Virus record (IMG/VR): IMGVR_UViG_2657244940_000012 | Direction: 5' to 3' (one strand) | DNA length: 16,439 nucleotides | Source: a virus | Lineage: Duplodnaviria; Heunggongvirae; Uroviricota; Caudoviricetes | Shown here: piece after piece, positions 6,001-9,000 of the stretch | Layout of the letters: each line of letters opens with the position of its first letter | Position numbering within the stretch: position 1 is the first letter of the stretch | Position numbers: made by a program

Positions 6001-9000
6001 TTTTAACATCAGATTCTTTGGGGACTGGCCTGGGTTTATTTCGGGAGCGTTTGGTTGGAAGGTAATTGCAGTTTTCACAGACGATATCGGTGATGCTTCG
6101 TCGCTGTCGTCTCATTCGTACCTCCTGTCGGTAAATCTGACACCCTGATCCACGGCCCAGGATGTTGTGTACTCAATCAGGCTTGCCATACGCTTCACGC
6201 TCATTTGCGCACTGCTTTCGCGGATATTGACGTATTCACCTTCAAGACCTGGCAAAACATCAGCTTCCTGTTTTGTCGCCACGGCATGACCGCTGATTAA
6301 CAAAACTTTCCACTGTTCTGGTTTTAGCCACCTGCCGCACCACTTAACCTGGCGGGATATATCAGCGACCATCGCGTGAAATTTTGCATTTTGAGCGAGA
6401 TTACGCTTGTAATCGGTGATACGGATCGTAACGGGTTTGTCTTTATCGAGAGTTGTTGCAAGGATGGCGTTAATGGCGAATTGTTGCTGCTGCTTACTTC
6501 GGAGGAAGATAGTCTGGTTCATTATTCCCTCTCACTGGATTTTCCCAACAAAAAAGGAGCCGAAGCTCCTTTAGTTTCAGAATTCAAATTGTCTTGCCCG
6601 CAGGCTTTTCAGCATTGGCATGGCCCGCTGGATAACGGAACTTGACATGTCGAGACGTGTTACCTCCCTTAGTAGCGCGTCTCTGTTCTTCGTCACCATG
6701 TAGATAGTCTCAAACGCAATGTCATACAGCTTGTTCGTGTATGAGGAGTTCAGCTCTTTCATTATGGGGTACAGGTGTTTGCTGAGGTCCTGGGCTTTTT
6801 CCATCCATACCAGCATGTAGCAGAGGAGGATGATTTCTTCGGCTGTGAATTGTGGCTGAATCTGCGGTTGCTGTTCGGTTTGTGTTGTTTTTCCCTGGCT
6901 GAAATAGCAGTCTTCCAGTTTTTCGAACACTTCCCACGCCTGATCGGTTTCGAGCATTTTTGCATGACGGGCAGCACCGCGTTCTGTCCAGAGGATGAGG
7001 GAGCGAGTTTTAGGAGAGATTCTCACCTCATTTTGCGACTCGTTTAAAACTAGTCGCAAATTTCTGAGTTCATCACCAACAGCTTTAAAGAAGTGCTTTC
7101 CCTCAATAAACCGAGATTTATTTTCATGGTGATTCTGCTGTATACGGATTGTTTCTGTTCCATAAAGGCAGGCGAGTAACTCAGTTGTGATTACAGGAAT
7201 CTGGTTATAGGTAACAGGGGAAAGGTTTTTGACAGAGATTTGAACAGTCATAACGACCTCGCGTTTCGATAATTTTTACCTCACCACCGTCAGGTTCCAA
7301 TCATCGGGTGGCGGACTGTGCAGGGTTGGAACTACCGGTCGAAACATCCGGCGCACCTTTCGGTGCCCCCACACAGCCCACCATAAATCGCGAATGTGAC
7401 TGTGCTTAGCGCATAAAAAAACCGCCAGCGCGGTTATGCACCGTTTCGATATCCGGGGTTCCAATCCCGACGCCAGATTTTGCTGGCGTGCGATGAATAT
7501 AATCCCGGATACGCGACGTTGTCAAACTGATGGCATTGCAGATCCCTACACAATGTAATACTATGTGTTATACATTAATAACGGAACAAAAAATGCGCAT
7601 TTTTAAAAACGCTTGGTTTGAGCGATTTGCACGCAAAAACAAAATATCCGACCAGTCACTGCGCGAAATTGTTAAACAGGCTGATAACGGGCTTATCTCA
7701 GCAAACCTGGGTAACGGCGTTATCAAGCAACGTCTGCCACGAGTCGGTGGCGGCAAATCTGGCGGTTATCGCACAATCATTTTCTATCGTGTCGGTATGA
7801 GGGCATTTTTCGTATATGCATATGCAAAAAATGAACGTGAAAATATAACCGCTACTGAGGAAAGCACATTTCGGAAGGCTGCACCTCACGTACTCAATCT
7901 AACAGATGAACAACTGGCACAACTGATTCTACAGGGTCAGTTTACGGAGGTACCAAATGAGTAAAAATTACCGCAGTGATGCGCTTGCATCCGTACATGA
8001 AATGATGGAATCGCTTCATGATATCGGCGCAGTAACGAAACAGACTATGCGAGAATTCGATGAACTCTGCCTGCAACCAGCACCTTCAATGTCTCCTGAA
8101 AGAATCCGGGCACTCCGTGAGCGTGAACATCTGTCACAACCCGTCTTTGCCAGATATATGAATGTCAGTAAAAACCTGATATCTGACTGGGAACGCGGAG
8201 TGAAACGCCCTGGTGGTCCCGCCCTGCGACTTCTTTCCGTTATTGAAAAAAACGGGATTCAGGCCATAAATGTTTGATTACCACTAAATGACGATGTTTA
8301 ATCCCCCTCATCCCGGAGAAATTATTGCTGATATTCTGGAAGGTCAGAATATTGGGAGCAGAGAACTGGCAAGAGCGCTTGATGTCGCGCCTTCCACTGT
8401 TCAGCGACTGGTTTCAGGTAATGCGACAATATCTCCTGAAATGGCTGTTCGTCTCGCTGCTGTCCTGGGTGGAACTCCGTCTTCATGGATTCGTCTCCAG
8501 ACGGCATGGAGCCTTGAAAAAGCGGAAAGAGAAGTTGACGTATCTCATCTCTCAACAAAATACCGCCCGGCAGAAATTTCGCCTCATGCTTAACCACCGC
8601 GCCGTCGTTCTGGCGGCGTTTCCCTCCCCCAGAGAAATATCAATCACCGGATTGCCACATCCCATTTCGGCTCCTGCCATCTCAAATCCGGTGAATCATT
8701 TCTCGCCGGAATAACCATTACGTCCTTTTCCATCCGCTCCCTTTCTATCGCCATCACAGCCAATGCTGCAACCATGATGTATTTTTGTTCGTCGGTTCCT
8801 GTTTCATAACGACGCATGAGGGTAAACTCGGGGCGATCAGTAACCTCAATGATTTCGTTAATTTCTTTAATTTCGAGAGGAATATTGATTTTGTTGTTCA
8901 CGTCATAACCTCAATATTAAAAATTCGTTAACATTAAATTTTGAATACCGGATGTTTACCCGTGTCCGGCGCACGACCTCACGTTGCAGCGTGAAGGTCT

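Follow-up and report, generated by a model that had tools for sequence, protein, structure and literature searches.

What kind of system is encoded upstream of a phage gene where a small RNA candidate lies together with three copies of an unusual repeat? The question is raised by positions 7262-7525 of the window, the 16,439-nucleotide stretch of a Caudoviricetes virus (IMGVR_UViG_2657244940_000012) analysed here. Judging from the sequence, this interval very probably constitutes a single IsrK/C4 antisense-RNA immunity cassette of the P1 immI type, read from the minus strand. Sequence and comparison place the promoter first, followed by IsrK with sites a1 and b1, C4 with b' and a', a leader with a2 and b2, and the antirepressor gene (Table 1). 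The Rfam families isrK and C4 are both matched above their curated thresholds, in the order and orientation expected of such a cassette. The host element is a lambdoid prophage, in which the cassette occupies the nin region upstream of ninB-Q; it belongs to a kind of regulatory system already known from P1 and Salmonella Gifsy-1, not to a new one. The initial annotation had proposed the sRNA gene and had considered the repeats as pairing partners, both of which stand, whereas its alternative of protein-binding sites is disfavoured and the coupling it suggested to a toxin-antitoxin operon is unsupported. The antisense circuit of a1/b1, b'/a' and a2/b2, as in P1 immI and Gifsy-1 isrK, escaped it because the C4 RNA that carries the inverted copy went unrecognized.

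Table 1. Features of the predicted IsrK/C4 cassette and the gene that it would regulate
Feature	Position	Strand	Description
Sigma-70 promoter PisrK	7496..7525	-	TTGACA 7525-7520, 18-nt spacer, TATATT 7501-7496; 11/12 consensus matches
IsrK-family sRNA (c4-a1b1 leader + terminator equivalent)	7415..7489	-	Rfam isrK RF01394
IsrK hairpin 1	7489-7470	-	predicted fold
IsrK hairpin 2	7469-7454	-	predicted fold
Site a1 UUGGAAC	7458..7464	-	loop of IsrK hairpin 2; complementary to a'
Site b1 UCGAAAC	7443..7449	-	single-stranded stretch of IsrK; complementary to b'
IsrK terminator stem	7435-7420	-	followed by U7/T7 at 7421-7415
C4 antisense RNA, 85 nt	7304..7388	-	long basal stem, P2 GAAA hairpin, P3 hairpin
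Site b' GUUUCGA	7339..7345	-	9-nt loop of C4 hairpin P3
Site a' GUUCCAA	7326..7332	-	single-stranded junction of C4
Site a2 UUGGAAC	7294..7300	-	antirepressor leader, directly 3' of C4
GGUGGUG element	7282..7288	-	between a2 and b2; can pair with C4 basal-stem 3' strand CGCCACC 7313-7307
Site b2 UCGAAAC	7263..7269	-	12-18 nt upstream of antirepressor AUG
Motif copy	7443-7464	+	pattern search
Motif copy, inverted	7326-7345	-	pattern search; inside C4
Motif copy	7263-7300	+	pattern search
Antirepressor-type protein, 224 aa	6577..7251	-	regulated gene; ORF6N + P22_AR_C domains

The near-consensus minus-strand promoter described initially was borne out, both by its consensus matches and by the presence of a promoter at an equivalent position in nearly all of the 18 classes of homologues. 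A scan of the region at a looser threshold returned one site against 1.2 expected, and therefore the weight rests on the quality and position of the promoter, not on the count. The -10 hexamer reaches to within 7 nt of position 7489, at which the Rfam isrK match begins, and the predicted transcription start lies at ~7489. The match to isrK (RF01394; 76.3 bits against a gathering score of 50) extends from 7489 to 7415 and covers model positions 1-77 of 77, so that the earlier sRNA candidate corresponds to a curated family. With its own promoter and a Rho-independent terminator, the predicted sRNA would be ~75 nt long; the hairpin, body and T7 terminator reported previously are present, but what was taken for a ~75-nt body is in fact the entire 75-nt sRNA. 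The statement that no ORF is present holds in substance, the sole frame there being a mechanical TTG ORF (7464-7276). The Rfam c4-a1b1 model (RF03163) matches 7502-7450 over its full length with 46.3 bits (gathering score 46.7, E 1e-10), compared to 51.0 bits in P1 and 48.1 bits in Gifsy-1. A LexA-box-like CTG-N9-CAG spotted by eye upstream of the -35 hexamer was discarded for its wrong spacing.

The C4 match (RF01695; 75.5 bits against a gathering score of 45) runs from 7388 to 7304 over model positions 1-87 of 87, and the minimum free energy (MFE) fold of this segment (-46.9 kcal/mol, z = -4.6) independently yields the P1/P2/P3 structure of the family. In records of related phages, the C4 RNA is either overlaid by hypothetical CDSs or its region is blank, and no RNA is annotated there in the E. 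coli RefSeq record L123. Several other candidates in this region were rejected. The sequence GGTTCCAATCC, which is the complement of the a-site, resembles a tRNA T-arm, but ARAGORN found no tRNA or tmRNA in the window; the Rfam matches to sR58 and mir-1231 are far below threshold and due to chance. Coding of an orf45-like protein or leader peptide was likewise dismissed because the frame that starts at the conserved C4 AUG varies in length and in its relation to the downstream start, comprising 14 to 62 codons, or being fused, across the classes. In the window, this frame runs for 27 codons from the AUG at 7384 to a stop at 7303-7301, which leaves 50 nt to the antirepressor AUG.

A search of the 16.4-kb window for GTTTCGA-N(4-30)-GTTCCAA identified exactly three instances where 0.01 were expected; none of 200 shuffles reached three. 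The coordinates agree with those of the two direct copies and one inverted copy in the initial annotation, which had offered two readings of them; the second, pairing inside a longer structured leader, is correct. The three copies are the classic pairing sites of P1 immI, namely, a1/b1 in IsrK, b'/a' in C4 and a2/b2 in the leader. Exact 7-nt complements of a' or b' are present at all four target sites, and each contact is short, at 7 nt (8 if a G-U pair is counted). The same pattern search detected no further a/b-type site in the window.

Conservation of the copies in related prophages had been named as one point on which the proposal would stand or fall. We compared ~90 homologues from viral contigs, which fall into 18 specificity classes; the copies are retained, and all three change together across these classes. 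Each class contains exact complements of b' and a', 7-10 nt long, at conserved upstream and downstream positions. Cognate duplexes are more stable than non-cognate ones by 2-6 kcal/mol for all four interactions (permutation p <= 1e-4), with shared ancestry remaining in the controls. One case comes from relatives with 92% identity, in which a1, a' and a2 have switched jointly from UUGGAAC/GUUCCAA to UUAGCAC/GUGCUAA while the b-sites are fixed. Against these relatives, both a1-a' and a'-a2 are 100% paired, with compensatory changes in 4 of the 7 pairs in each case; for a'-a2, slid controls gave 21-39%. Where b1 is imperfect at internal positions, the mismatches on the transcribed strand comprise 7 G-U and 0 A-C. 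Among complete E. coli genomes, the best full-length match to the cassette has 91.7% identity.

The gene downstream, previously labelled Roi-like, encodes an antirepressor of the ORF6N/P22_AR_C type (Pfam E-values 2.2e-20 and 1.8e-08, respectively) and is not specifically Roi; its product is a homologue of Gifsy-1 AnrP (59% identity over 143 aa, E 1e-54). The b2 site ends 2 nt 5' of the Shine-Dalgarno sequence GAGG (7260-7257) and abuts it without overlap, unlike b2 of P1 and Gifsy-1, which overlaps the Shine-Dalgarno sequence. There is no ORF in the 12-nt gap between b2 and the antirepressor ATG (7251), and hence no counterpart of icd.

The closest comparisons are with P1 and Gifsy-1, with both of which the window aligns across the whole cassette. 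In the immI region of P1/P7 (c4, icd, ant1/ant2; NC_005856), the parts follow one another as in the window: the promoter precedes a1, again in a hairpin loop, and b1; a hairpin resembling a terminator comes next; C4 holds b' in a loop and a' in a junction; and a2 and b2, the latter close to a ribosome-binding site, lead to the antirepressor. The P1 record annotates a1, b1, c4, a2, b2, icd and ant, and the P1 leader matches the isrK model end to end (35 bits). The P1 sites (a UUGACAG, b GUUAGUG) are unlike those of the window, and P1 is a plasmid prophage whereas the element analysed here is a lambdoid prophage. In P1, icd lies between b2 and the antirepressor, its ribosome-binding site is covered by b2, and its translation is needed for ant transcription, an arrangement that the window lacks. 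The window protein is not P1 Ant and, unlike P1, the window has one promoter and no annotated C1 operator. In Gifsy-1, isrK-orf45(STnc1160)-anrP (Hershko-Shalev et al. 2016, PMC4825925) shows the same arrangement, with 79 bits for IsrK and 69 bits for C4, and its PisrK has hexamers and spacing identical to those of the window promoter. Both elements are lambdoid prophages with homologous antirepressors (59%) and cassettes near Q, although the Gifsy-1 cassette lies downstream of Q and that of the window upstream of ninB-Q. The Gifsy-1 sites (a UUGGCGU, b UCACCG) differ from those found here. The orf45 frame of Gifsy-1 extends from the C4 AUG as far as the start codon of anrP, on which it terminates (frame confirmed), in contrast to the corresponding short frame of the window.

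Other known elements resemble the cassette in part. The c4-a1b1 motif of Rfam (RF03163; Weinberg et al. 2010, PMC2864571) has two hairpins, the second of which holds a1 in its loop and is directly followed by b1. It overlaps IsrK over the 5' two-thirds of the sRNA; as defined, it omits b1 and the terminator, both of which are included in the isrK model. The CI RNA of P4, a processed small RNA that pairs with complementary sites (seqA/seqC) up- and downstream in the same transcript, is similar by description and was considered a structural analogue of IsrK by the authors of the Gifsy-1 work (PMC4825925). In P4, however, the outcome is premature transcription termination of the replication genes, whereas the control proposed here is translational and acts on the antirepressor. 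In P22, the small antisense RNA sar keeps the phage antirepressor ant untranslated. The sar RNA is encoded in cis on the opposite strand and is fully complementary to its target, whereas the regulator of the window is on the same strand, would be processed from the same transcript, and would make two short, split contacts.

By analogy with experiments in P1/P7 and Gifsy-1, the majority of transcripts would end at the IsrK terminator, and C4 would be excised from those that read through, as by RNase P at the 5' end in P1. Hartmann et al. (1995) reportedly observed such excision of C4 from its precursor by RNase P 5' cleavage in P1/P7, where C4 is also known to repress ant in trans. The a' and b' sites of C4 would pair with a2 and b2, occluding the ribosome-binding region, so that the antirepressor would not be made and lysogeny would be kept. 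IsrK, with identical a1 and b1 sites, would compete for a' and b', either in trans on free C4 or on read-through RNA, and when plentiful, would turn on antirepressor translation and favour induction. In line with this, IsrK provided in trans increased anrP translation more than 100-fold in Gifsy-1 (PMC4825925), and the compensatory mutants G28A/C162U and G31A/C159U of Gifsy-1 fall on the a1-a' pairing. On the other hand, co-expression of STnc1160 (the C4 region) failed to counteract IsrK in Gifsy-1 (PMC4825925), which speaks against a simple sponge model. According to the supplement of PMC2864571, competition of a1/b1 with a2/b2 for C4 was already proposed by Citron and Schuster in 1990. Divergence of the a and b sequences would endow each cassette with its own specificity (heteroimmunity). 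Given that both icd and orf45 are absent, the published downstream steps of neither P1 (Rho polarity via icd) nor Gifsy-1 (translational coupling via orf45) transfer directly to the window, which speaks for direct occlusion at a2/b2 as the common mechanistic core.

The Gifsy-1 work itself favours a different key step, a model that we consider somewhat unlikely here but the strongest competitor. In this model, the a1/b1 segment of IsrK pairs in cis with a'/b' in the read-through RNA, locking it in an inactive fold; the key repressor is not free, processed C4, and short IsrK displaces the pairing in trans and frees the ribosome-binding site. In Gifsy-1, native gels and the compensatory mutants support cis pairing of IsrK positions 28/31 with 162/159 (PMC4825925); these positions correspond to a1 and a' of the window, whose cassette is collinear with that of Gifsy-1 to within 1 nt. 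Alternative folds are also indicated by the GGUGGUG element: if it pairs with the C4 basal stem on its 3' strand, as predicted, a2 would come to lie in a hairpin loop, and this hairpin and the C4 fold would be mutually exclusive. This a2 hairpin is found in 18 of the 18 classes and in P1, with differing stem sequences; in the window it is weak (-10.6 kcal/mol), and 13.5% of shuffled flanks fold equally well. On the other side, the cis model requires orf45 to be translated in coupling with anrP, whereas the window has only an interrupted version of this frame; IsrK and C4 remain separate modules in the predicted MFE fold of the entire 260-nt leader; a2/b2, which the model does not need, are conserved and covary in every class; and, as annotated in the P1 record (NC_005856), C4 of P1 acts in trans as a processed 77-nt RNA.

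It is improbable that IsrK functions mainly as an Hfq-dependent trans-acting sRNA on mRNAs of the host or other prophages, with a secondary link to the antirepressor. In Rfam, the family goes by the name of an Hfq-binding RNA, Salmonella lysogens contain abundant IsrK across many conditions (PMC4825925), and the U-tail terminator and single-stranded b1 region are sRNA-like; but a1 and b1 are the only covarying regions, their partner is the adjacent C4, and the window contains no other a/b-type site.

Least of all do we expect the motif copies to be DNA operators, for example, for the two HTH proteins encoded nearby: direct and inverted copies would covary under double-stranded DNA binding too, through altered protein specificity, but the half-sites vary independently (a switches and b is fixed in the 92% relatives), their spacing is unequal (8, 6 and 24 nt), the b1 mismatches are G-U on the transcribed strand (7 to 0), the copies sit in loops of RNA structures backed by curated covariance models, HTH/RelE neighbours are missing from nearly all homologous cassettes, and RNA pairing has been shown experimentally in P1 and Gifsy-1. 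The coupled regulation with the toxin-antitoxin operon that had been suggested finds no comparative support. RelE and HTH genes flank the cassette only in two 92%-identical relatives, the only ones among all collected loci with tblastn matches to these proteins; further loci that share the specificity class lack them, as do VT2-Sakai, P1 and Gifsy-1; neither an inverted repeat nor a shared operator was found in 7480-7600.

The antisense cassette also invites a wider reading, which we put forward tentatively, as possible but short of probable. IsrK and the a1/b1 leader of P1 may be the same element, a dedicated anti-antisense decoy for C4, in a single system with a combinatorial, two-part address code that decides between cross-induction and insulation of co-resident prophages, the a2 hairpin adding a cis switch. 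At least 18 combinations of a and b were found, and the antirepressors to which they are attached (Rha, Bro-N, ORF6N) belong to unrelated families; each of the two sites can be swapped without the other, and two orthogonal cassettes can share one prophage. In a 2025 review, IsrK and c4 are still given as unrelated sRNAs, and Rfam keeps isrK outside the C4 clan. If there is indeed one system, the Gifsy-1 and P1 literatures describe the same one.

What had been an sRNA candidate plus odd repeats thus becomes a complete, annotated regulatory module, and the probable annotation of the region is corrected. The modest addition made here is that coordinated switching of specificity at three sites is visible even between 92%-identical cassettes. 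We propose that the cassette provides a second, RNA-based immunity layer that gates the antirepressor. Such a layer would bear on how lambdoid prophages are induced spontaneously, among them those Stx-type phages that carry homologous cassettes.

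The minus-strand promoter-to-terminator small RNA unit and the thrice-repeated motif pointed out in the initial annotation are both confirmed, coordinates included: the 16.4-kb window contains exactly three occurrences of the pattern GTTTCGA-N(4-30)-GTTCCAA, compared to 0.01 expected, and none of 200 shuffled sequences reached three. These copies are the a1/b1, b'/a' and a2/b2 sites of an immI circuit of the P1 type, and all features of the cassette lie on the minus strand. The small RNA is a member of the IsrK family: when the entire window was scanned with the curated Rfam thresholds, isrK scored 76.3 bits, against a gathering score of 50. 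A second, more permissive scan added c4-a1b1 (“a1, b1 targets of C4 antisense RNA”), which overlaps isrK, at 46.3 bits against 46.7; ARAGORN detected no tRNA in the window. Adjoining isrK, the curated scan identified a C4 antisense RNA (75.5 bits against 45). Folded alone, this RNA adopts the family structure (-46.9 kcal/mol, z = -4.6), which comprises a long basal stem and two hairpins, the first with a GAAA cap. The predicted fold places GUUUCGA in the second hairpin's 9-nt loop and GUUCCAA in a single-stranded junction; the “inverted” motif copy is the recognition segment pair of C4, an RNA that the initial annotation had missed.

Features of the cassette and its surroundings in the window
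Feature	Position	Strand	Remarks
Motif copy	7263-7300	+	pattern search
Motif copy	7443-7464	+	pattern search
Motif copy	7326-7345	-	pattern search
Promoter, TTGACA	7525-7520	minus	18-nt spacer; 11/12 consensus positions
Promoter, TATATT (-10)	7501-7496	minus	
c4-a1b1 (RF03163)	7502-7450		
isrK (RF01394)	7489-7415	minus	
IsrK hairpin 1	7489-7470	minus	GC-rich; starts 7 nt past -10
IsrK hairpin 2	7469-7454	minus	then single-stranded stretch
a1, UUGGAAC	7464-7458	minus	loop, IsrK hairpin 2
b1, UCGAAAC	7449-7443	minus	IsrK single-stranded part
Terminator hairpin	7435-7420	minus	
Seven U	7421-7415	minus	
C4 (RF01695)	7388-7304	minus	
b', GUUUCGA	7345-7339	minus	loop, C4 hairpin P3
a', GUUCCAA	7332-7326	minus	C4 junction
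a2-loop hairpin	7282-7313		
a2, UUGGAAC	7300-7294	minus	leader, just 3' of C4
b2, UCGAAAC	7269-7263	minus	12-18 nt upstream of ATG
Shine-Dalgarno, GAGG	7260-7257	minus	
Antirepressor ORF	7251-6577	minus	ATG at 7251
RelE-family toxin gene	7593-7964	plus	overlaps antitoxin gene
HTH antitoxin gene	7957-8277	plus	
Further HTH gene	8288-8593	plus	after antitoxin gene
cI	13790-14503	plus	
DnaD_N ORF	3953-4546	minus	
STnc100 copies	3342-3533, 2857-3066	minus	
NanS-p-like esterase gene	652-2655		DUF1737, SASA, DUF6645 domains

In the leader, b2 is followed by GC, the Shine-Dalgarno sequence and the start codon of a 224-aa antirepressor, which contains ORF6N and P22_AR_C domains and shows 59% identity to Gifsy-1 AnrP over 143 aa. 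The window is a lambdoid prophage, with the minus-strand gene order cro, cII, replication genes, cassette and antirepressor, ninB, ybcO, rusA and Q; immediately upstream of the cassette promoter, the plus strand carries the RelE/HTH toxin-antitoxin genes and one more HTH gene. An ORF of 197 aa located downstream of the gene for antiterminator Q encodes a DnaD_N domain (E 7e-08); this is an unusual place for a replication-type domain. Two tandem STnc100 copies (Rfam; 145 and 138 bits against a cut-off of 47) are also located downstream of Q, upstream of the NanS-p-like esterase gene.

To compare loci, viral contigs were scanned with a pattern derived from the invariant C4 core alone, leaving the a' and b' positions free. 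The scan yielded 120 loci, about 90 of them true C4 homologues, which sort into 18 classes by the b' loop and a' segment. In all 18, exact 7-10-mer reverse complements of b' and a' recur at conserved positions, with a1 and b1 about 95 and 79 nt upstream of the core and a2 and b2 about 70 and 100 nt downstream; b2 abuts or overlaps the Shine-Dalgarno sequence. The duplexes of cognate sites are more stable than those of non-cognate sites for b'-b1 (-11.3 vs -6.6 kcal/mol), b'-b2 (-12.3 vs -6.4), a'-a1 (-8.2 vs -6.2) and a'-a2 (-8.5 vs -6.2), with permutation p <= 1e-4 for each interaction in a control that ignores shared ancestry. In 16 of the 18 classes, C4 is preceded by a U-run and a promoter occupies a fixed position. 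The gene families 3' of the cassette are unrelated among homologues (Rha, Bro-N, ORF6N, DUF3077 and small unknown ORFs).

The sharpest evidence of pairing comes from the closest relatives, PhiR12_3 and E. coli FORC_069 (loci L121 and L123, positions 2501-2802 in each), which share 91.7% identity with the window across the cassette. The b-sites are the same in all three, whereas a1/a'/a2 are UUAGCAC/GUGCUAA/UUAGCAC in the relatives and UUGGAAC/GUUCCAA/UUGGAAC in the window. In this alignment, pairing is 100% for both a1-a' and a'-a2, and in each of them both sides have changed in 4 of 7 pairs; sliding the partner by 1-3 columns reduces pairing to 18-54%. This coordinated change is a switch of specificity within a short evolutionary span and recalls the heteroimmunity of P1 and P7. 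The FORC_069 prophage carries a second IsrK/C4 cassette (L123, 4095-4390), about 1.6 kb away; an ORF6N gene follows one cassette and an Ant gene the other, and because both the a and b specificities differ, the two appear orthogonal.

A hairpin with a2 in its loop, in which the 3' strand of the C4 basal stem pairs with a GGUGGUG-type element between a2 and b2, is present in 18/18 classes and in P1 (about 507-548 of locus L124), with covarying stems of differing sequence. It is mutually exclusive with the C4 fold, is weak in the window (-10.6 kcal/mol), and is not followed there by a U-run. Weinberg et al. 2010 described hairpins that overlap the C4 stem in its 3' half and took them for terminators (PMC2864571).

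The anatomy of the cassette and its kept complementarity are direct results of this analysis; the regulatory steps are modeled on P1/P7 and Gifsy-1. The promoter would yield mostly short IsrK, and the read-through RNA would contain C4, to be processed out. Pairing of C4 with a2/b2 would keep the ribosome off the antirepressor start, and IsrK, with identical sites, would compete for a'/b' and relieve the block. The C4 RNA is annotated as a 77-nt species in the P1 record, and the P1 C4 precursor was reportedly found to be an RNase P substrate by Hartmann and colleagues in 1995. The competitor role of a1/b1 was proposed by Citron and Schuster, as summarized by Weinberg et al. (PMC2864571). IsrK and STnc1160 (the C4 region) are plentiful in Salmonella lysogens. 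In the Gifsy-1 study (Hershko-Shalev et al. 2016, PMC4825925), IsrK supplied in trans stimulated anrP translation by a factor of more than 100 and promoted induction of the prophage, and co-expression of STnc1160 left this effect unblunted, so that a simple sponge model is not established.

The cis-fold model of Gifsy-1 is a live rival. Differences from the studied loci restrict how far their mechanisms carry over to the window. In Gifsy-1, orf45 begins with the AUG conserved in C4 and runs to the start codon of anrP, whereas the counterpart frame in the window is just 27 codons long, its stop lying 50 nt ahead of the ATG. The length of this frame ranges among classes from 14 to 62 codons, unless it is fused to the gene downstream, a pattern consistent with selection on the RNA and not on a protein. 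P1 has icd between b2 and the antirepressor, whereas the window has none. Given the lack of icd and the short, variable orf45 frame, direct occlusion at a2/b2 is favored as the core step in the window. In Rha-type classes (loci L001, L019 and L080), the C4-AUG frame enters the downstream gene in frame, without a stop.

The initial annotation, whose interpretation is supported in part, had considered both pairing partners and protein-binding sites, and RNA pairing is favored over DNA operators. Direct and inverted operator repeats would covary as well, so covariation alone does not decide between the two. The a and b halves, however, vary independently of each other; half-site spacing is unequal (8, 6 and 24 nt among the three copies); the imperfect internal positions of b1 are G-U on the transcribed strand in seven cases and A-C in none; and the sites lie within loops of structures in curated covariance models. 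Furthermore, the Gifsy-1 compensatory mutants G28A/C162U and G31A/C159U restored the repressed state (PMC4825925), and these positions, numbered from the transcription start, map to a1 and a'. The suggested coupling with the toxin-antitoxin operon finds no comparative support, because the RelE/HTH genes, a divergent insertion between the replication/nin genes and the cassette, flank it only in PhiR12_3 and FORC_069 among the loci compared, being absent from the other loci of the window's a/b specificity (L017, L061 and L104) and at the VT2-Sakai (where the neighbor is NinE), P1 and Gifsy-1 cassettes, and a search between the divergent promoters revealed no inverted repeat, although coupling might operate in this particular prophage.

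The annotated order in P1 is promoter P1c4, a1, b1, c4 RNA, a2, b2, icd and ant1/ant2, and the alignment of the window, Gifsy-1 and P1 spans the entire cassette, with differences mainly at the pairing sites. Because the match of the P1 leader to isrK covers the whole model, at a score that falls short of the cut-off (35 bits, E 5e-6), and because this leader has a hairpin and U-run between b1 and c4, IsrK and the P1 a1/b1 leader are homologous. In the literature, IsrK and c4 are handled apart: the Gifsy-1 paper likens IsrK to P4 seqA/CI, not P1 c4 (PMC4825925), a 2025 review gives the two as distinct sRNAs, and isrK is not in the Rfam C4 clan CL00128. The isrK and c4-a1b1 families are, nevertheless, overlapping parts of one element in the window (7450-7502), P1 (L124, 318-412) and Gifsy-1 (L125, 34240-34329). 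The public records of VT2-Sakai, PhiR12_3 and FORC_069 contain no RNA feature for IsrK or C4; in VT2-Sakai, a “hypothetical protein” CDS, orf34 (L122, 2091-2264), overlaps the C4 region. Since the classes do not share a conserved frame through C4, CDSs of this sort are probably spurious.

The cassette scores above the curated thresholds for two Rfam families, has the defining C4 complementarity and is collinear with two loci that have been studied by experiment. It thus adds another example to a known kind of element, and is real and probably functional. Its particulars are a = UUGGAAC, b = UCGAAAC and an ORF6N antirepressor directly after b2, upstream of ninB-Q. Uniting IsrK and c4 is a tidy point rather than the discovery of a new system.
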